Assembly: GCA_029856435.1 (NCBI GenBank)
Contig: JAHQXB010000173.1
Location: 1-12,805 of the forward strand
From: Candidatus Jordarchaeia archaeon
GTDB lineage: Archaea > Asgardarchaeota > Jordiarchaeia > Jordiarchaeales > Jordiarchaeaceae
Length of the DNA: 12,805 nt
Direction: 5' to 3'
Shown: positions 326 through 12,506 of the stretch, in pieces
How positions within the stretch are numbered: the stretch's first letter is position 1
Layout: every line of letters begins with the position of its first letter
Position numbers and translations under genes: made by a program
Notes under the pieces: generated by a model
What the model saw: the letters and a program-made list of their open reading frames with translations, nothing else
What the model was told of the DNA's origin: nothing
Database searches by the model: none

Positions 326-1486
326 TTACTGTGCAGCAGCATAGGGTGTGAGCGGAGCTACCTGTTGTTGGAGGAGTTCCTTTACGGGTTTCACTGATGC
401 GGCCTCGGTCAGCTGGACCAGTATGAGAAGGTTGTGGGTGAAGCACATGAAGGCAGTTTCCACCTCTCGGTTTTCCTCCCTTCGGGAGCTGAGACTGGTG
501 CTGTTCCTAGACCAGAGGTTTCCGAACACCGCTTCCACGAGTCCCCGGTACCGGTACAGTTCCTTCATCTCTGAGAACATCTTCCTCAGACACGCCAGAA
601 GCCGGTTCTCCTTCTGTCCTTCGGGGCGGGTCTTGGGCTTGAACAGGGGAAGAAGGCCCTCTTTTAGGCTGCTCTTGAGGTTTTCCAGGTTGAAGTAGGC
701 TGAGTCCCCTAGAGTTAAGCCTATGAGTTCTCCCACTCTTCTTATCTTTTCGAGGAAGATCTGGGCGTTGGGGGATTCCAAGAACTCCCTGAGCCTCTCT
801 ATGAACGACGCGGCTGATCCCAGTACGGTTCTGACCCGTTCAGGCATCCCCGCTACCTCTCCTAGAATTCGCTTCTGGAGGTGGTGGAGTTCTCTGAGGA
901 AGGTGCTGAGGCTGCCGATGAGTTCCCTGTAGATGGGGGAGTCGTTCCTGTTTTGGGGGGTGAGCTTGTACCCCAAGATGAGGTTTGTGAAGAGTGTGGT
1001 TGTGATGTGGAGCTTCTGGTAAGCCTGTTTCAATACTTTCTTCATAGCACGGGTTGTTTCCTTCTTTTCTGGAACCGTGAGGCCTGTGGAGTCGGTCACG
1101 AGGAGCAGGAGGGGGAAGGGGAGGAGGAACACCACCGTCTTAACTACCTGTTTGCTCATCTCGTCTACGATGGGCTTCAGCTTAGGGTTTGTGGCGGCGC
1201 GCCATATGGTGTTGTCGTCGGGTGCTATGCCCACGAGCGAGGGGGCCAGCATCTCTAGAAAAACATAAGAGCAATGGATGATTTGTTTTATTACGGCGAG
1301 GGCGATCAGCTTTCCTAGAGGGTAGCTGCGCTGCCTTCCCCTTCCTCGTGGGCATCCAAGCTGACCGTCCTCGAAGTGGTTGAAGAGCGTCTCAACGAGA
1401 AACACTATCAGCCGGAGGAAGCGGGCCTTCCGCGCCCTGAAGTAGTTCTGGTAGTAGCTATCCCTACGTTTGTGAACCTTGTTCAT
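326..1486 (-). CDS. DDE transposase, IS4/IS5 superfamily (DDE_Tnp_1-like), 386 aa
   Basis: The catalytic triad appears intact: VTDSTG (D1), LGDSAY (D2) and YRYRGLVEAVFG (Y-x2-R-x3-E signature). It is preceded by an AGGTGA Shine-Dalgarno. Confidence 0.9.
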   Translation of the reverse strand: MNKVHKRRDSYYQNYFRARKARFLRLIVFLVETLFNHFEDGQLGCPRGRGRQRSYPLGKLIALAVIKQIIHCSYVFLEMLAPSLVGIAPDDNTIWRAATNPKLKPIVDEMSKQVVKTVVFLLPFPLLLLVTDSTGLTVPEKKETTRAMKKVLKQAYQKLHITTTLFTNLILGYKLTPQNRNDSPIYRELIGSLSTFLRELHHLQKRILGEVAGMPERVRTVLGSAASFIERLREFLESPNAQIFLEKIRRVGELIGLTLGDSAYFNLENLKSSLKEGLLPLFKPKTRPEGQKENRLLACLRKMFSEMKELYRYRGLVEAVFGNLWSRNSTSLSSRREENREVETAFMCFTHNLLILVQLTEAASVKPVKELLQQQVAPLTPYAAAQ

Positions 1487-2241: not shown

Positions 2242-3543
2242 GTGAAATACATTGTAATTATTGGAGACGGAATGGCAGACTATTCCCTAGAGGAACTGAA
2301 CGGGAAAACCCCATTACAAGTAGCCTATAAACCAAACATAGATTATATCGCTAGGAAGGGAAAGAACGGAATACTAAGAACCATCCCCGAAAAATTACAG
2401 CCAGGATCCGACATAGCAAACCTATCCATCCTAGGCTACGACCCACTAAAATACTATACAGGAAGAGGCCCCATAGAAGCGGTTTCACTTGGAATAAAAC
2501 TAAAGAGAGAAGAAACAGCTTTTAGATGCAACTTAGTAACACTAGAGAAGGGAAAAATGGAAGATTACAGTGCCGGGCACATAAACAGCAACGAAGCAAA
2601 GGAAATCATCAAAACTCTAAACAAAAAGCTGGGCAGCAACTCTATAAGGTTTTATAATGGGGTAAGCTACAGACACATCCTACTGATAAAGAATGAAAAA
2701 ACTGAAAGGGCAGAATGCACACCACCCCACGACATAACAGGCAAAACTATTACACCTCACCTTCCGAGAGGAGAAGGAAGCGAAATTCTACTAGAACTCA
2801 TTAAAAAATCCCAAGAAATTCTAAAAAACCATCCAATCAACATAAAAAGAGTTCAAGAAGGGAAAAAACCCGCAAACTCCATATGGCTATGGGGGCAAGG
2901 CAAAACCCCCCATCTAGAAAGCTTTAAGGAAAAATTCAGAGTTAAAGGCGCCATAATATCCGCAGTAGACTTAATAAAAGGAATAGGCAAACTAATAGGC
3001 CTCAAAACCATAGAGGTCCCAGGAGCCACAGGATACTACAACACAAACTATACTGGAAAAGCTGAATACGCCTTAAAATATTTGAAAAACTATGATTTCA
3101 TCTATATCCACGTAGAAGCCCCAGATGAAGCAGGACATGCTGGAGACATAGAAAACAAAATAAAAGCCATAGAAAACATAGACCAAAAAATAGTAGGAAA
3201 AATCCTGAACAATGTCACTGACCTAGACGACAACTACAAAATCGCAATCCTACCTGACCACCCAACCCCCATAAAAATAAAAACACACACCAACGACCCT
3301 GTCCCCATAGCAATATACTGCAACAACGAAAAAGGCGACAAAATACAAATATTTGACGAAAACTCAGCCCAAAAAGGGGCCCTAGGCTACTTAATAGGAG
3401 AACAATTCATGTGCCTCCTAACCAAAAAAGAACACTCTCAACCCAAACAACAAACCAGCAAAAACACTAATCCCTACAAAAAAACCAAAATACGAAGTAA
3501 AAAGGAAAGGGAAGAATTGGGAGGAGGGAAGGACCAAAGATAA
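2242..3543 (+). CDS. apgM: Cofactor-independent phosphoglycerate mutase, ApgM family (alkaline phosphatase superfamily)
   Basis: Motifs IIGDGMAD, GKTPL, PGSDIANLSILGYDP (catalytic Ser), TGRGPIEA, HVEAPDEAGH, PDHPTP and HTNDPVP. GTG start with GGTGG upstream. The last ~38 aa are low-complexity. Confidence 0.92.
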   Translation: MKYIVIIGDGMADYSLEELNGKTPLQVAYKPNIDYIARKGKNGILRTIPEKLQPGSDIANLSILGYDPLKYYTGRGPIEAVSLGIKLKREETAFRCNLVTLEKGKMEDYSAGHINSNEAKEIIKTLNKKLGSNSIRFYNGVSYRHILLIKNEKTERAECTPPHDITGKTITPHLPRGEGSEILLELIKKSQEILKNHPINIKRVQEGKKPANSIWLWGQGKTPHLESFKEKFRVKGAIISAVDLIKGIGKLIGLKTIEVPGATGYYNTNYTGKAEYALKYLKNYDFIYIHVEAPDEAGHAGDIENKIKAIENIDQKIVGKILNNVTDLDDNYKIAILPDHPTPIKIKTHTNDPVPIAIYCNNEKGDKIQIFDENSAQKGALGYLIGEQFMCLLTKKEHSQPKQQTSKNTNPYKKTKIRSKKEREELGGGKDQR

Positions 3544-4002: not shown

Positions 4003-5157
4003 TTAGAAGCACCGGTGGATAGCGGCAGCGCCTTGCTCTTGATACTCCTTCCGAGTGACCCACATCTTCTGGAAAGTCTTCAAAGAAGATAATATGCTTC
4101 CGCCGATCCACACGGAGTACATTCTTTCTGGTGGCGCAATTATTTTGATTTCGATGTTTTCTGGCACTAGTTCACTAATCTCTTTATGCAGGCGCTCCTT
4201 AAGGCCGGGAAACATGGTGCTGCCACCGCTGAGAACAATGTTCCCATACAAGTCACGCCTCAAGTCAACATCGCACTTCTTGACACACTCCACTATTACC
4301 TCATCAAGAGGCATCGCATCCAGACCCACTACGCCCGGGTTAAAGAACACCTCAGGCGCCAAAAAGCGTTCGCTGGAAATTGTAATGGTTTCACCATCTG
4401 GCAACATGTAAGTCTTTTCCATACCCGCAACCTTCTCAGCTAGCTTCAGCTCCTTCTCAGGGTCCAGAGCAACGTAGCAAAGCTTTTCCTTTATATCACG
4501 CACAATTTCTCGCTCTGCGCTCGATACCAGAGAGTAGCCTCTTTGCCTCAGCAGTCGGCGGAGATACTCTGTAAGGTCTCTACCTGCGAGATCTATCCTA
4601 GTGATAGCATGGGTAAGTGCAAAACCTTCATATATGGGTACAATGTGAGTCACGCCATCACCAGAGTCAATCACCAGCCCGGTGGTTCGCCCAGAAGCAT
4701 ACAGCGAAAGCACCGCCTGCATGGCAACATACATTGCAGGTACATTGAAGGTCTCAAACATAATCTCCGCCATCTTCTCACGATTCTTACGCGGATTCAA
4801 AGGCGCCTCAGTCAGTAGCACGGGGTGCTCAGCAGGGTCAACCCTCAAATCATTAAAGAAAGTGTAGTGCCAAATCTTCTCCATAGCATCCCAATCATTA
4901 ACCGTACCATGCTCAACGGGATAGACTAGTCTCAGCACGCCTCGTAGGTTTAGGGCCTCTTCTCCGATGTAGTATTCTCGGGTGTAGTGTTCGACGTCGG
5001 TCATGATTGAGGCGTATTTTGGGTAGCCTATGCATGTAGGCCACACGGATCTTGGTTGGTCTTCTCCTGCGTATCCGTTTTTGGTTAGTCCTGTGCCATT
5101 GTCTAGGACTAGGGGTTTTGCGGCTACGAGTTCTTCTTCGGGTGGACCTATCGCCAT
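4003..5157 (-). CDS. Actin (Asgard Lokiactin type), 384 aa
   Basis: Actin-specific motifs: LVLDNGTG (phosphate 1), [64 protein letters not shown] (phosphate 2), [30 protein letters not shown] and C-terminal HRCF. It is much closer to eukaryotic actin than to MreB. No introns; prokaryotic gene neighbourhood. Confidence 0.97.
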
Positions 5158-6570: not shown

Positions 6571-7296
6571 CTATTTCTGGAAGGCTTGATTCTTGTAGGT
6601 GGGTACGGTATTTGTGATATTTAGTTGGCTGCAATATTGTACGTCTTTTTGGAATCCTATTTGTGTTAAGTATTGGGCGTTAGGCGTGTTGTATATTTTT
6701 TGGGTTATGTTTTTTGGAATAGGGCTGTTTTGAATGTATTTTTTTATTATTTGGGCGGCAATGTAATCTTCTGGTGCATATTCGTCAAGTCTTCCCACAT
6801 GGATTATTGTGATTGGTTTTCTTGTCTTTAGAGCCATTTTTTTAGCTTTTTGGGCTACCGATTTGGCATTAATTAAGCAACCTATAAAAAGGTGTGGAGC
6901 GGTTCGGGCGTTGTTCGCCACTCTTGTAAGGTTAGTGGTGGTAAGTATTATTATTTTCCCTTTTACTATTTCAGGTTTGTATTCGAGTGGGCTGTTTCCT
7001 AGTTGAAAATTTTGAATTTTGAATCCTTGTCTTTCTCCCGCGAGGACGACTTTGTCTCGGATTTCTTGCGCCAGTTTTTTTGCCTCTTCTACTGTTGCGG
7101 CTGTTATAACTTTTTTAGCCCCATTGTCTAATGCAGTAGTAATTGTTGTGCTGGCTCTTAAGGTATCAACCAGCACTACAATGTGTTTTTTTTGTGCTGC
7201 TCTTAAGGCCCCTCGTGTCCCGAATGCGAGGTGAACTAAGTCTTCCCCGTCTTGATTTCGCTTTTCCTTTTCTGGAATTAGAGACATTTTTTTCAC
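6571..7296 (-). CDS. comB: 2-phosphosulfolactate phosphatase
   Basis: Motifs VVLVDTLRASTTITTAL, LAGERQG, GNSPLE, ILTTTN, LFIGCLINAKSVA and APEDY. The GTG start overlaps the comA TGA (GTGA); an alternative ATG is at 7287. Confidence 0.9.
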   Translation of the reverse strand: MKKMSLIPEKEKRNQDGEDLVHLAFGTRGALRAAQKKHIVVLVDTLRASTTITTALDNGAKKVITAATVEEAKKLAQEIRDKVVLAGERQGFKIQNFQLGNSPLEYKPEIVKGKIIILTTTNLTRVANNARTAPHLFIGCLINAKSVAQKAKKMALKTRKPITIIHVGRLDEYAPEDYIAAQIIKKYIQNSPIPKNITQKIYNTPNAQYLTQIGFQKDVQYCSQLNITNTVPTYKNQAFQK

Positions 7297-8102
7297 TTTT
7301 TTGCTAGGAACCTAGTCATAGTATCTCCCCTTAATCCTATGCGAAGTGTTTCGAGGGGAATAACATCGGTGGGTCTAATGTTCCCAAGGTTTACATTAGG
7401 TCCAAACCGTGTAATGAGCCATAACTGTTGGGATTTGAGTGGGGCTTCCCAGATAATTTTTTTGGATGGTATTTTGGCAACAATCTCTTCTATAAATGGT
7501 TCTTTTACTTTTCCTTCCTCGTCGTAGGGGCCTATTCCAATTCCGCTTTCCCGCGCCTCGATGGTTACATAATCCGCCCCGGAGTCTAAATCGGTTTGAA
7601 TTTGTTTTATGCGGTCAGAAATTTTGAGCTGAGCGTCCTCAGTTTTGATTTTTCTGCCCACTTCGGTTATTACAGTTTGAAACCCTAATTGTTTAGCCTT
7701 TTTTATTAGTTCCGATTTTTCCTGAGAGGATATATTAACCACTCCTGTGGAAATTTCAATAGCGGTAAATCCTAGAGTTTTGAGTGTTTCTAGAAACGCT
7801 TCGGTTTTCCCCATTATTATAGCGGCTTCTAGGGCGGAACCTCCACTGAGAGTTTTTATTCCGTGGGAATGATAGAGTTTTAGCTTCTTTTTTAGTAGAT
7901 TTTTGGGCTGTATGAGCCAAGTCGCCCATCCAAACTTGCAATAATCAATATAATTCGCGGCACTTTCAACTACATCTTTTGTTATAGGGAGGCCTTGGCC
8001 AGTATCAATAATGGCTGTTATTCCCTCAATTCTTGGTTTATCTGTTCTATTTACCTCAGAGAGCTTGAAGATTTGCTTATTATGATTTGTCAAGTTCATC
8101 AC
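7293..8102 (-). CDS. comA: Phosphosulfolactate synthase
   Basis: Motifs GITAIIDTG, YIDYCKFGW, GFTAIEIS, TEVGRK (conserved Lys), GADYVTIEARESG, IIWEAPLKSQQ, NVNLGNI and LETLRIGLRGDT. The likely start is ATG 8099 within GGTGATG. Confidence 0.93.
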   Translation of the reverse strand: MMNLTNHNKQIFKLSEVNRTDKPRIEGITAIIDTGQGLPITKDVVESAANYIDYCKFGWATWLIQPKNLLKKKLKLYHSHGIKTLSGGSALEAAIIMGKTEAFLETLKTLGFTAIEISTGVVNISSQEKSELIKKAKQLGFQTVITEVGRKIKTEDAQLKISDRIKQIQTDLDSGADYVTIEARESGIGIGPYDEEGKVKEPFIEEIVAKIPSKKIIWEAPLKSQQLWLITRFGPNVNLGNIRPTDVIPLETLRIGLRGDTMTRFLAKK

Positions 8103-8200
8103 CAGTAATTTTACTATCTTAGAAACTTACTGACTTTAGACTTAGCCCTTTTTTAATATTACTAGTTTTTAAAATGTTCTAGTTGGTTTTAATTACTGGT
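8101..8200. repeat. Perfect 10-bp inverted repeat bracketing the thrC-like/comA intergenic region
   Basis: ACCAGTAATT (8101-8110) and AATTACTGGT (8191-8200), with an 80-nt spacer. An inner ACTAG...CTAGT pair (8161-8183) surrounds TTTTTAAAA. Confidence 0.6.
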
Positions 8201-8202
8201 AT

Positions 8203-9477
8203 TTAATACAGTAACTGGGGGTTCTCCTCTAAAATTTGGCTTATAGTTGTATCTTTAGATACCGGTCCGATTCTCTCGAAATTATAATGCCTTTTTTCCC
8301 TTTCCGCCCCCGTGTACCCTATGATTACCACGTCACCTGAGTCGAATTGGTCTGCAAGTTCTATCGTTGCTTGAATGGCTATAGCCGCTGGAGACATTAT
8401 TTGTATTTCGAAGATGCTTTCAGAGTTTTCGTAGATTTCCTTAGATTTCTCCTCGTTCACCTTGTGAAATAGCCCAAGAGTTTCCCTTACTACATATTTA
8501 ACGTATGGGTAACAATTTTTAGGATATTCATTTTCAATGATTTTTGCCCAAGTCGTTGAATTTATTCTCTGAGTGATTCTATCTTGCCCTTTTATGGCGG
8601 GATCCACTATGGAGGCGCACCCTTCAGGTTGGACACATACAAGGTGCATGTATTCTTTAAGAAAGCCGTATTCCCTCAACCGTTCAATCGCCTGATACCA
8701 ACCTAGTAGACCATTACCACTCCCTGTGGGATGAATATACCAAACTTTTCCAGAATCCATTAAACTTCTCGCATGTTTTCCATATTTTTCATAAAGCTGA
8801 TAGCAGGCCTCATATGCCATAGTCTCTAAACCCGCTATCTGGTTAGGATTAGCAAAACCTCCATCCAGTACATATGAAGTTTCTTCAGCCATTCTGATTG
8901 AAAGAGATGTAGCGTCAACGTATCGCCCATTAACCAATATAATATGGGTTCTTTCATTTTCATCATCGAAATTAATCAGATTTTCCATTTCTGTAGGTAC
9001 GAATATGGCTAATTTTTTGAAGGCCCTCTGATTATATAATCCATAAGACGTTGCTGTGTTTCCCGTACTCGAAAGTGTAATATTTGGTATGTTGCGTTCC
9101 TTGTAAACTGATAAGGCTACCGATGCGCTCCTGTCTTTTATAGTTCCAGTAGGGTTAGTACTTTCATCCTTTACAAGAAAAGTAACATCGCTGCGTCCCG
9201 CCATTCTAGCTATTGTTTGGTCCTCATAAAGATTGGTTCGCCCCTCCCCCAAGTGAATCATATTTGAAGCAGGTTTTAGTAGGGGGAGCACTTTCTGAAA
9301 AATCCACATTCCAGGAAGGCCTCTTTCGGTTAAATCGCTTAATTTTTTAGGTCGGAGATTAGGATAACAATATTGAAGTATTCCCCCACATTCTTCACAG
9401 GAGGTCTTGTGCCCCACTGCGGGGGAAAGATTACCGCACTCGAAGCACTCATAGAAGATTTCACGCAGACATATCAA
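8203..9477 (-). CDS. Threonine-synthase-like PLP enzyme (fold type II); threonine synthase or cysteate-synthase-like
   Basis: N-terminal Zn ribbon (CFECG...CEECGG), HLGEGRT, KDESTNPTGTIKDR (PLP lysine), SSTGN, AGLETMAYE, PTGSGNG and VCVQPEGC. TTG start. Substrate not assignable from sequence. Confidence 0.85.
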   Translation of the reverse strand: MICLREIFYECFECGNLSPAVGHKTSCEECGGILQYCYPNLRPKKLSDLTERGLPGMWIFQKVLPLLKPASNMIHLGEGRTNLYEDQTIARMAGRSDVTFLVKDESTNPTGTIKDRSASVALSVYKERNIPNITLSSTGNTATSYGLYNQRAFKKLAIFVPTEMENLINFDDENERTHIILVNGRYVDATSLSIRMAEETSYVLDGGFANPNQIAGLETMAYEACYQLYEKYGKHARSLMDSGKVWYIHPTGSGNGLLGWYQAIERLREYGFLKEYMHLVCVQPEGCASIVDPAIKGQDRITQRINSTTWAKIIENEYPKNCYPYVKYVVRETLGLFHKVNEEKSKEIYENSESIFEIQIMSPAAIAIQATIELADQFDSGDVVIIGYTGAEREKRHYNFERIGPVSKDTTISQILEENPQLLY

Positions 9478-9682
9478 CTCCTTCTATTTAGTGTCCTCTT
9501 AATTTTGAGGATTTGTCTTAAAACTTGTTAAATTAACGTGTTGGCCTTGAGAATTTTTCTCTCTATTCTCCTCCTAAGTCTATTGTTTGTTTTTCCGACT
9601 CCTTAGATGTAAAATATGGCTTTTCCATTTTTAGGAAAAGTTCGTGAATGCAATTACGTCTTACCAAGCTTTTTCGGCTTAT

Positions 9683-10234
9683 TCACTTTTTAACCGCATT
9701 TTCAAATCTGTTCTTTATATCTTGAGGGTGCATTTCTATTATGGGTACGTCGGCGTTTCCTTTTTCTACTTTTGCAATAATTACTGTTAACCCCTTTTTA
9801 GATTTCCTATAAGCTTCTCTCAGTTTTTGAGGAGACTCCGCCACAAAAACCCTTTTAATCCCTGCAGCCCGCGCCAAAGCCGCTAAATCTGTTTTACCTG
9901 CAGTGTAACTTGGTTGCCCTCCTGTCGACCCATAGGACTTATTATCAAAAATAATTAATGTTAAATTTTTAGGAGACCAATTGGCTATCGTTACCAGAGA
10001 ACCCAAGTTCATTAGGATAGACCCATCCCCATCCATAACTACTACACGTTTATTTACTGATAAGGATAGTCCCAAACCTATGGAGGAAGCCAAACCCATA
10101 GAACCAAGCATATAGAAGTTTTCAGGTCTATCCCCTACACTGTATAGTTCTCTTGAGGGGAAGCCGAGATTACAAATCACCAACTCCTTCTCAAGTTCTT
10201 CCACAATATTTTTAATAGCTTCTATTCTCTTCAT
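9683..10234 (-). CDS. comE: Sulfopyruvate decarboxylase beta subunit (ThDP-binding)
   Basis: Motifs CNLGFPSRELY, NFYMLGSMGLASSIGLGL, ThDP motif DGDGSILMNLGSL...DNKSYGSTGGQ. Overlaps comD by 23 nt. Confidence 0.9.
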   Translation of the reverse strand: MKRIEAIKNIVEELEKELVICNLGFPSRELYSVGDRPENFYMLGSMGLASSIGLGLSLSVNKRVVVMDGDGSILMNLGSLVTIANWSPKNLTLIIFDNKSYGSTGGQPSYTAGKTDLAALARAAGIKRVFVAESPQKLREAYRKSKKGLTVIIAKVEKGNADVPIIEMHPQDIKNRFENAVKK

Positions 10235-10724
10235 TTTTCATCAATTCCCTTTCTATTAGTACCGCTACTGGAACCTTATTGCTGTGAAATGACTTTTTTG
10301 CTCTTTCAAAAGCCTCAGGAATTTGTTCTGCATTTTTTGGCGTATAATGGGGGATGCCTATAGCGTCCAATAGCGCTGGAGTAGCTTTTCCCATAGGTAT
10401 CTGTGCGGGAATTGTTTCCCCTTTTCCACCCCGTTGAGCTATTAGAATTAGAAGTGGTATTCTGAAAACCATATTAAGAGAAGCAAGTGCATTAATTGAG
10501 TTGCCTAGACCACTATTTTGCATAATTAATGCTGGTGTTTTACCCCCCAAATATGCTCCCGCAGCTATCCCCACACCCTCCTCTTCTCGAGTTACAGGCA
10601 CATGCAATATTTCTTTTGCCTCATCCAGCATGTCTAAAAGATTTTTAAAAAGACTACTGGGAACAGATACAACAAAATCAACACCTAATCGAATAAGTTC
10701 TCTGAAAATAATATTTGTTATCAT
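10212..10724 (-). CDS. comD: Sulfopyruvate decarboxylase alpha subunit
   Basis: Motifs DFVVSVP, VTREEEGVGIAAGAYLGG, LIMQNSGLGNSINALASL, IPLLILIAQRG and PAQIPMG. Confidence 0.9.
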   Translation of the reverse strand: MITNIIFRELIRLGVDFVVSVPSSLFKNLLDMLDEAKEILHVPVTREEEGVGIAAGAYLGGKTPALIMQNSGLGNSINALASLNMVFRIPLLILIAQRGGKGETIPAQIPMGKATPALLDAIGIPHYTPKNAEQIPEAFERAKKSFHSNKVPVAVLIERELMKNEENRSY

Positions 10725-10838: not shown

Positions 10839-11474
10839 TCACGTAGTGATGCTGCTTCTGTGTAGTTTTTTAAGCGCTACTGCAATACGATAAAACGCAG
10901 TAAAATTGGCCAGTATTCCCGCAATTATTAAACCATAAATTGGAAATCTGGCGTCTAATGGATAAAGAATGGAAAATACCAAGAGGATGAACAATCTTTC
11001 TGATCTGCCTGCTACACCGCAGTCCAAATCAAGGTTATAGACTTCCCCCTTAGATCTTGTATAACTCACCATTATAAATCCCGCTAAAGAAATAATCACC
11101 CACAGATTAAGTGGAACTAAAAAGTAAAAGTTTGCCGCTTCCCTCCAAAATAAGAATCCTAAAATCAGAATAAAATCAGAGTATCTATCTGATAAAGAGT
11201 CCAGAATACCGCCTCTGGGCGAGGCGGAGCATGTAATTTTGGCTAGGGCGCCATCCACCCCATCTAATAGACCCGTAATAAATACCAAAACTCCATAAAG
11301 AATGGGGAAACCATGTGAAATTGTGATAGATGCAAGTAAAGATAAACCAAGTGCGAGGATAGTAACTTGATTAGGGGTTAAACCTGCGCTTGCAAAACCC
11401 TTTGCTATTTTATAAATTATTGGTTTGAAGATGCGCCGGATTCTATATTTAGAAGGCAAATCGTGCCTCTCCAA
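10839..11474 (-). CDS. CDP-alcohol phosphatidyltransferase (archaetidylinositol-phosphate-synthase/PgsA-like membrane protein)
   Basis: GLTPNQVT, signature DGVDGALAK-x7-GGILDSLSD, MVSYTRSKGE, GVAGRSERLFIL, and several hydrophobic helices. TTG start. Confidence 0.88.
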   Translation of the reverse strand: MERHDLPSKYRIRRIFKPIIYKIAKGFASAGLTPNQVTILALGLSLLASITISHGFPILYGVLVFITGLLDGVDGALAKITCSASPRGGILDSLSDRYSDFILILGFLFWREAANFYFLVPLNLWVIISLAGFIMVSYTRSKGEVYNLDLDCGVAGRSERLFILLVFSILYPLDARFPIYGLIIAGILANFTAFYRIAVALKKLHRSSITT

Positions 11475-11480
11475 CTAATT

Positions 11481-12506
11481 CTACACCGATGGAAATAAGA
11501 GATTTTTATACAGTACCGCATTGGAATATTGATTATTTTCCTCCACAATAGCATTTCCAAAAAGCACAGAGTTCTGGATGATCGCGCTGGAGGAAATCTC
11601 ACACTCACTCCTCATAGACACAAAGGGGCCTACTTTGCTCCTAGGGCCAATTTGGCAATTAGATTCGAGTACGGTGGGACCACTTATGATAGAAGTTCTA
11701 TCTAACCCAATTTTCCACTTTTTCTTTATAGGTCCTCTAACTTGTTTCGAGTTCTTGACGTAGAAATTGTTTTGAGGTATCAACCCTTTTATAAGTGCAA
11801 ACTTGTTCGCCCTTAGAACGTCAGATATAAAGTCTACATCGAACCAATAGTTTTTAGAAACATCAATGAAGCAAACTGGTTGGCCGTCTCGGATAAAGAG
11901 ATTTAATGCGTCCAAAAGTATATTTAATCCATTTTCAAGGGCCTTGTGAATGTAATGAAAAATCGAGGAGTTGCATAGAAGAAGGCTAACACATAGATGT
12001 GGCTCCCCCCCTTCTAAAATAGGTTTATGGAATCCAGAAACGCGACCATATTTTAGCCCTGTGGGGCAAGTATACACAGTAGTTCCCAATTTGGAGTCAG
12101 AGGCAATATCTACAGCAATAGTCACTCCCTTCCTTGAATGTTTTTTCTTCACAGTTTCGATCGCCCTAGGATCTATAATAAAATCTCCAGGACTCACAAA
12201 AAATTTATTTGAAGAAATTTCTTCCTCCGCAGCAAGCAATGAATATATGGGTCCTAAATTATAGTTTTTAGACTCCCTATACCTTATCGACACCTCGTAC
12301 TGAGCGCCATCCTCTAATTGATTTCTTATCTTACTTCCAAGATGCCCTGTCACAATTATGAAATCGGAAATTCCAGCTTTCTTATATGCCAGAATAAGGT
12401 GCTCAATTATGGGACGATTAGCTATGGGGATGAGTGGCTTGGGAATGAATTGAGATAGGGCACCCATACGTGTACCCTTGCCAGCGGCCAGTATTACAGC
12501 TTCCAA
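11481..12506 (-). CDS. Sugar-phosphate nucleotidyltransferase with C-terminal hexapeptide (left-handed beta-helix) repeats
   Basis: AVILAAGKGTRM, PKPLIPIANRPIIEH, GPIYSL, PGD and WFDVD. The C-terminus IISGPTVLESNCQIGPRSKVGPFVSM...IIQNSVL is hexapeptide-like. TTG start. Confidence 0.88.
   Translation of the reverse strand: MEAVILAAGKGTRMGALSQFIPKPLIPIANRPIIEHLILAYKKAGISDFIIVTGHLGSKIRNQLEDGAQYEVSIRYRESKNYNLGPIYSLLAAEEEISSNKFFVSPGDFIIDPRAIETVKKKHSRKGVTIAVDIASDSKLGTTVYTCPTGLKYGRVSGFHKPILEGGEPHLCVSLLLCNSSIFHYIHKALENGLNILLDALNLFIRDGQPVCFIDVSKNYWFDVDFISDVLRANKFALIKGLIPQNNFYVKNSKQVRGPIKKKWKIGLDRTSIISGPTVLESNCQIGPRSKVGPFVSMRSECEISSSAIIQNSVLFGNAIVEENNQYSNAVLYKNLLFPSV

Follow-up and report, generated by a model that had tools for sequence, protein, structure and literature searches.

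Coenzyme M (CoM) was long taken to be diagnostic of methane and alkane metabolism. The Type 1 pathway to CoM in class I methanogens uses ComA, ComB, ComC, ComDE and ComF/MMP16, and the Type 2 locus of the Methanosarcinales and some Asgard archaea combines a cysteate synthase gene with comDE and the MMP16 gene. The 12,805-bp stretch of DNA analysed here (the window) corresponds to contig C65 in an assembly of 3.54 Mb that is 97.8% complete (G000), and it includes a cluster of comD, comE, comA and comB, with a gene for a pyridoxal phosphate (PLP) enzyme of the threonine synthase (ThrC) superfamily, referred to as the ThrC-like protein, in its middle. Close homologues of the window proteins are named Jordarchaeaceae, Jordarchaeum or Freyarchaeota, and the host is a Jordarchaeia/Freyarchaeia Asgard archaeon, a congener of the closed genome G117 (3,576,204 bp).

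The MCR-free Freyarchaeia were previously described as having a full CoM gene set via the ComABC pathway (PMC11291895), and Jordarchaeia as having methyl transfer to CoM, MtrAH and Hdr, and no Mcr (PMC9723677). A CoM pathway without methyl-coenzyme M reductase (MCR), which an earlier note on this stretch had considered, is thus already in print for this genus and class, and the cluster mainly confirms the recorded pathway. Both pathway and lineage were known before, and two variations are real: within the genus MMP16 has been lost, and the cluster contains an orphan PLP enzyme as an accessory.

The com gene cluster

Gene identity was judged by curated NCBIfam equivalog cut-offs, and Pfam models were used alongside. 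ComA, ComD and ComE score over their curated cut-offs (Table 1), as expected for the CoM/sulfonate cluster recognised in the earlier note. ComB is below the NCBIfam equivalog cut-offs and is a clear Pfam member. The cluster resembles the Type 1 pathway in the ComA, ComD and ComE equivalogs and in the Pfam family of ComB. An assignment of ComDE as a phosphonopyruvate decarboxylase was rejected on model scores (for ComD, 122.7 against a cut-off of 312.5).

All five co-oriented open reading frames (ORFs) claimed by the earlier note are present on the minus strand, and the coupling by overlap that it described amounts, from the coordinates, to 23 nt for comD/comE and 4 nt for comA/comB. The ThrC-like gene has spacers of 205 bp and 100 bp on its sides, and its own GGAG and TTG start. 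Also as noted earlier, neither comC nor an aminotransferase gene was found among the window ORFs by ORF calls and profile searches.

The distribution of these genes was assessed in 400 Asgard genomes and in a sample of 11 genomes from the order, in which G112-G116 make up the sister family f2. ComE is over its cut-off in 89 of the 400 genomes and in 11/11 of the order, and archaeal ComA in 12 of the 400, 11 of them from this order (11/11). A true cysteate synthase, with scores of 428-564, occurs in 15 of the 400 genomes, none of which belongs to this order. On these counts, most ComE-positive Asgard archaea, especially those of family f20, are without a recognised sulfopyruvate source.

Pathway steps encoded outside the cluster

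The only Ldh_2 gene in G000 lies on contig C179 (PF02615, 417 bits). As its best NCBIfam match, L-sulfolactate dehydrogenase (NF040650), gives 262 bits against a cut-off of 500, its product is considered only a candidate ComC. The earlier note had suggested a mosaic or new route to sulfopyruvate. Given this candidate, a new route is not needed, and a mosaic, which is possible and unproven, could arise only via the ThrC-like enzyme. Within the order, the Ldh_2 candidate is confined to genus g1, and no Ldh_2-type dehydrogenase was detected in family f2 at E<=1e-30. The f2 genomes include ComA, ComB, ComDE and mostly MMP16, with the sulfolactate oxidation step unaccounted for.

MMP16/ComF is absent from G000, where the best match (146.6 against a cut-off of 364) is the sole COG1900 gene, of the CBS-tailed L-ASST type, and it is also absent from the closed genome G117. 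In the congener G118 and in three metagenome contigs of hot-spring relatives (L003-L005), whose ThrC-like protein is 80% identical to the window copy, a gene for an MMP16 of 430-434 aa (TIGR03287, 484 bits) is found in the slot of the spacer between comE and the ThrC-like gene, and DNA alignment at this position revealed a clean indel in the window with no remnant. The 205-bp spacer is kept among G119-G121, with an AT-rich box and GGAG ahead of the TTG start, and these genomes and G000, all lacking MMP16, form a single lineage with 95-97% identity. MMP16 occurs in 5/11 genomes of the order, being found in G118 and in f2, and it has been lost from the lineage studied here. Hence, of the two genes that the earlier note thought might lie elsewhere in the genome, comC has a candidate on C179, and comF is absent here and is located in the cluster in close relatives.

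In M. acetivorans, MMP16 is the primary CoM synthase, an MMP16 deletion mutant grows except when sulfide is omitted from the medium, and L-ASST may make up for the loss of MMP16 (PMC12068725). This compensation is a documented back-up for the last step of CoM synthesis, and the L-ASST-type COG1900 enzyme is likely to be the back-up for the missing MMP16 in G000. The variable presence of a CoM synthase gene within one genus is new, and agrees with recent genetic evidence that MMP16 can be dispensed with under some conditions.

MCR alpha was not found in a search of the G000 genome, in line with the supposition of the earlier note. A sulfite supply is plausible, as judged by the genes present, since G000 encodes ATP sulfurylase and a member of the PAPS-reductase family. 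Candidate CoM users comprise 4-5 MtrH genes, 14 URO-D/MtaA-like genes and 62 CCG-domain matches. Candidates for the hdr and methyltransferase genes that the earlier note had in mind are among these, with no MtaA-like gene over its cut-off. For a 3.5-Mb MCR-free genome, the 62 CCG-domain (HdrB/HdrD-type) and 14 URO-D/MtaA-like matches make up a large thiol/disulfide and methyl-transfer repertoire. In the sister family, the MMP16 gene of G115 (L084 3572-7683) adjoins a gene for an SBF-family transporter and is near a TauE/SafE sulfite/sulfonate exporter gene.

Relationships of the ThrC-like protein

The ThrC-like protein scores 70.4 with the TIGR00260 (thrC) model against a cut-off of 167.1, and three genuine ThrC paralogues, over threonine synthase cut-offs at 367, 243 and 219 bits, are encoded on contigs C2, C34 and C117 of G000. 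The suspicion of the earlier note that it is not a plain threonine synthase was therefore well founded; a housekeeping threonine synthase was ruled out by the low score, by these paralogues and by the position in the tree. In a careful IQ-TREE run, the protein is split from the 24-row core ThrC clade at 100/99, and the Shimodaira-Hasegawa-like approximate likelihood ratio test (SH-aLRT) value for this split under LG+C20 is 99, the LG+C20 values here and below being taken from the quick tree of that search. A recognisable cysteate synthase was likewise rejected, with a TIGR03844 score of 66.8 against a cut-off of 324.9 and a position outside the cysteate synthase clade. When 1.84 billion cluster representatives were searched exhaustively, every protein at >45% identity was from Jord/Frey, and the next match was at 31%. 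A PDB sequence search gave threonine synthases only, at ~50 bits, and an Atlas search gave only clusters annotated as 'putative threonine synthase'. As judged by sequence, the protein is a member of a clade that is confined to the order and is separate from core ThrC.

The best-supported sister (98/91) of the ThrC-like protein is the PLP enzyme of a conserved trio that consists of a short-chain dehydrogenase/reductase (SDR), a ThrC-like PLP (PALP) enzyme and an RpiB/LacAB-type isomerase, and is present in two unrelated metagenome lineages (L108 3739-6136; L110 7286-9745). Together, these two groups are placed beside the cysteate synthases with moderate support (81/89; SH-aLRT 87 under C20). 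The cysteate synthase clade itself is recovered at 100/100 without the ThrC-like protein, which is a neighbour at most. The wider grouping unites the three longest branches, and among the group hidden Markov models (HMMs) built here the cysteate synthase model gave the lowest score for the window protein, 87 bits, as compared with 195-232 for the others and 126 for the two-sequence SDR-RpiB model. The sequence affinity to cysteate synthases is for both reasons a lead, not a result. In an approximately unbiased (AU) test, a topology that kept the ThrC-like clade on the ThrC side could not be rejected (p 0.66), a constraint that also fits a basal non-ThrC position and so does not discriminate; the test also showed that a preliminary quick tree was not optimal.

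The PF00291 motifs of the protein align with those of the family, including 'TGTIKDR' with the catalytic Lys, the carboxylate loop 'STGNT' and the glycine loop 'GSGNG', and a loop Asn is replaced by Asp in two members of the ThrC-like clade. The protein has a 12-13-residue insertion and an altered loop at the position of the ThrC motif 'NPxRxEGQKT'. At one position of this loop, nearly all other aligned sequences have an Arg, which we take from Thermus ThrC to bind phosphate, a role that a literature search did not confirm, and the ThrC-like clade has Gln or Met. A loss of phosphate binding was given little weight as an explanation, as C34 and P0044, which are over ThrC cut-offs or clustered with ThrC, also have Gln.

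The ThrC-like gene has a dN of 0.114 relative to the 80%-identical lineage, with dS saturated, which is the lowest value of the seven pathway-side genes compared; that of actin is lower still. This low dN indicates strong purifying selection, and the gene is therefore functional in the genomes that keep it. It was found in 6/11 genomes of the order, being intact in G000 and G118-G121 and frameshifted in G116, and is absent from the closed genome G117 and from all of genus g2, where the com genes are dispersed. With only these six carriers, the gene is dispensable in the order. The frameshift in G116 (L066 9818-11069) splits the gene inside the clade-specific insertion, and an intact copy of 415 aa is present in another Freyarchaeota assembly (L006). 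As to the synteny raised in the earlier note, the slot is kept in relatives: the gene lies between comE and comA in Jordarchaeia and likewise in Freyarchaeota, where a copy is 45% identical. Across the order, no complementary pattern was found between the ThrC-like gene and either ComC or MMP16.

Possible roles of the ThrC-like protein

The explanation preferred here, with a probability of roughly 0.6, is a phosphoenolpyruvate (PEP)-dependent, Type 1 pathway to CoM or sulfoacetaldehyde, with the ThrC-like gene encoding a PLP enzyme that is confined to the order, has an accessory part and is linked in function to ComDE. ComA would catalyse the reaction of sulfite with PEP, ComB would remove the phosphate, and the Ldh_2-type dehydrogenase encoded on C179 would then form sulfopyruvate, which ComDE would decarboxylate to sulfoacetaldehyde. 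Conversion of the aldehyde to the thiol, with CoM as the presumed end product, may depend on the only COG1900 enzyme, which is of the L-ASST type, or on sulfide chemistry. For the ThrC-like protein, the most plausible reaction would be beta-replacement or elimination with an amino acid as substrate, by which the sulfonate pathway is fed or tuned. Like the Type 1 system, the pathway so drawn includes an Ldh_2 candidate and, in the congener G118, MMP16 in the same cluster. It differs from that system in the absence of MCR, in the loss of MMP16 from G000 and the closed G117, in a ComC candidate that is below the cut-off and missing in the sister family, and in the extra gene inside the cluster.

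The tie to ComDE is suggested by the genomic context of related branches. Cysteate synthase genes of the Asgard archaea G127 and G398 directly adjoin comDE, with MMP16 nearby, the P0034 group adjoins a full-length thiamine pyrophosphate (TPP) enzyme, and the P0031 group, which at 31% identity is nearest in sequence among the outside relatives, adjoins ComD/ComE-like pairs. Since several non-ThrC branches partner 2-oxo-acid decarboxylases in this way, a sulfonate-pathway-linked role for the ThrC-like enzyme is more likely than chance lodging. The P0031 group shares with the window protein the adjacency of decarboxylase and PLP enzyme, but it belongs to a different clade and keeps an 'RRE' loop that the window protein does not have. 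Its loci (L114 7615-8736; L115 4681-6803; L085 403-2670) lie beside split ComD/ComE-like genes and an aldehyde dehydrogenase gene, and one of its contigs encodes URO-D/corrinoid methyltransferases, a corrinoid protein, RACo, an HdrD-like protein, APS reductase and ATP sulfurylase.

Several findings weigh against the preferred explanation. With the C179 candidate at 262 of the 500 bits set by the cut-off, the dehydrogenase step is not secured, and in family f2 no dehydrogenase of this type was detected at the threshold given above. The closed genome is one of five, out of 11 in the order, that lack the ThrC-like gene, and a sixth has a broken copy. The gene has its own spacer and start, and its tie to the pathway is positional. 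The CoM-specific consumers are all below curated cut-offs, the best MtaA-like match being 189 against 235.

A conserved and strongly constrained PLP enzyme at the centre of a CoM cluster, from a threonine synthase family branch that is still unstudied, is new in itself. Assigning a reaction to it would widen the known chemistry of sulfonate cofactors, and would help to interpret the many ThrC-like genes located beside ComDE-type decarboxylases in bacteria and archaea. It is doubtful that the protein is a new enzyme of the CoM pathway proper, either a phosphorylation-independent cysteate-forming enzyme or a PLP-dependent step that handles sulfur in support of CoM formation in genomes that have lost MMP16; if it were, a further variant of archaeal CoM biosynthesis would be present in a non-methanogen.

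The first of these options would make the cluster a true hybrid with both entries to ComDE, in which a very divergent cysteate synthase, or a phosphate-independent enzyme acting on serine or cysteine and sulfite, forms a product that is transaminated to sulfopyruvate. This can be put forward only tentatively. As in the Type 2 locus, comDE has a PLP gene of the ThrC superfamily as its neighbour, as does MMP16 in relatives, and the position of this PLP gene next to comE recalls that of the cysteate synthase genes in G127 and G398. The placement in the trees beside the cysteate synthases, together with the SDR-RpiB group, points the same way, as do the loops 'GGF.N' and 'GSG.G', common to the ThrC-like protein and the cysteate synthase side of the family, and the P0031 group on that side, which adjoins ComD/ComE-like pairs and sulfite-forming genes. 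However, the supporting grouping is the one made up of the three longest branches, and the protein differs from the Type 2 enzyme in its low TIGR03844 score and its position outside that clade, as well as in having its lowest group score with the cysteate synthase HMM. It also has the ThrC-type 'KDR' instead of 'KEL', and the 'RRDG' pair found in cysteate synthases is missing. There is no linked aminotransferase gene, and a second route would be redundant with ComA and ComB, which accompany the gene here, unlike in the Type 2 locus, and are present in 11/11 genomes of the order.

It is unlikely that the ThrC-like protein has nothing to do with sulfonates, being a paralogue from amino acid metabolism that settled between two com operons and owes its place there to general synteny. 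In favour of this, the housekeeping flanks (Pribosyltran, CGI-121, Sua5, PadR, actin and aPGM) are likewise syntenic, the order can dispense with the gene, which has a spacer and a start of its own, and its best-supported sister group is found in the unrelated SDR-PALP-RpiB context. Against this, its slot is identical in lineages that are only 45% identical, though the cluster is rearranged elsewhere, and the recurrent linkage of other non-ThrC branches to ComDE makes coincidence less likely.

An action at the thiol end of the pathway appears improbable. The protein would then be a PLP-dependent C-S lyase or beta-replacement enzyme, acting for instance on a cysteine adduct of sulfoacetaldehyde, and would supply or replace the MMP16 reaction. 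The ThrC-like gene lies 25 bp after MMP16 in relatives and is retained in G000 and G119-G121, which lack MMP16, and a PLP enzyme does perform the thiolation in the bacterial route, but that enzyme belongs to another PLP type (PMC9457059). Moreover, both genes are kept in G118 and L003-L005 and neither in G117, and the four MMP16-less genomes that retain the ThrC-like gene are a single, closely related lineage.

Finally, that the com genes act with the nucleotidyltransferase and CDP-alcohol phosphatidyltransferase genes upstream of comD to build a sulfonate-bearing lipid head group or solute instead of free CoM is very improbable: all genomes of the order share the arrangement of these two genes, comD and comE, with gaps down to ~45 bp, but the pair is missing at the comDE loci of 11 other Asgard genomes, a paralogous pair on contig C138 (L082 6220-7693) stands alone and best matches Thermococcales IPCT/DIPPS, below the cut-off, and we know of no chemistry for nucleotidyl activation of a sulfonate. 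The upstream pair is probably a separate unit and is not counted in the CoM pathway. The C138 pair hints at synthesis of a solute of the di-myo-inositol-phosphate type.

Other features of the window

In the order of transcription on the minus strand, the nucleotidyltransferase and CDP-alcohol phosphatidyltransferase genes precede comD, comE, the ThrC-like gene, comA and comB (Table 1). Beyond the com cluster lie a PadR-like gene, the actin gene and the aPGM-type mutase gene. The gene named as an Asgard actin in the earlier note matches the actin family PF00022.

Table 1. Features of the 12,805-bp window, with the profile scores (bits) and other evidence for each.
Feature	Position	Strand	Evidence
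ORF of 386 aa, probable mobile element	326-1486	-	weak IS5/IS1182 transposase matches
aPGM-type metalloenzyme	2242-3543	+	TIGR02535, 594 vs 446
Actin	4003-5157		PF00022, 458 bits
comB, 2-phosphosulfolactate phosphatase	6571..7296	-	PF04029 203 bits; TIGR00298 156 vs cut-off 175
comA, phosphosulfolactate synthase	7293..8102	-	TIGR03849 292.5 bits vs cut-off 280
ThrC-superfamily PLP (PALP) enzyme, N-terminal Zn ribbon	8203..9477	-	PF00291 102 bits
Spacer of 205 bp between comE and ThrC-like gene; comF/MMP16 slot in relatives	9478..9682	-	DNA alignment
comE, sulfopyruvate decarboxylase beta subunit	9683..10234	-	TIGR03846 250.1 bits vs cut-off 221.5
comD, sulfopyruvate decarboxylase alpha subunit	10212..10724	-	TIGR03845 191.8 bits vs cut-off 147.95
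CDP-alcohol phosphatidyltransferase	10839..11474	-	PF01066; best NCBIfam archaetidylinositol phosphate synthase 136 vs 180
Sugar-phosphate nucleotidyltransferase with LbH tail	11481..12506	-	PF00483 77.5 bits; Arch_glmU 141 vs 292

No Rfam match was found within the window. The ORF at the left contig end lies in a region with a local GC content of 51-54%, as compared with ~39% elsewhere in the window, and is probably a mobile element. The aPGM-type protein is over both the cofactor-independent phosphoglycerate mutase and the 'proposed homoserine kinase' models. Its ORF is ~30 aa longer than the copies in relatives, and is syntenic with actin and the com cluster.

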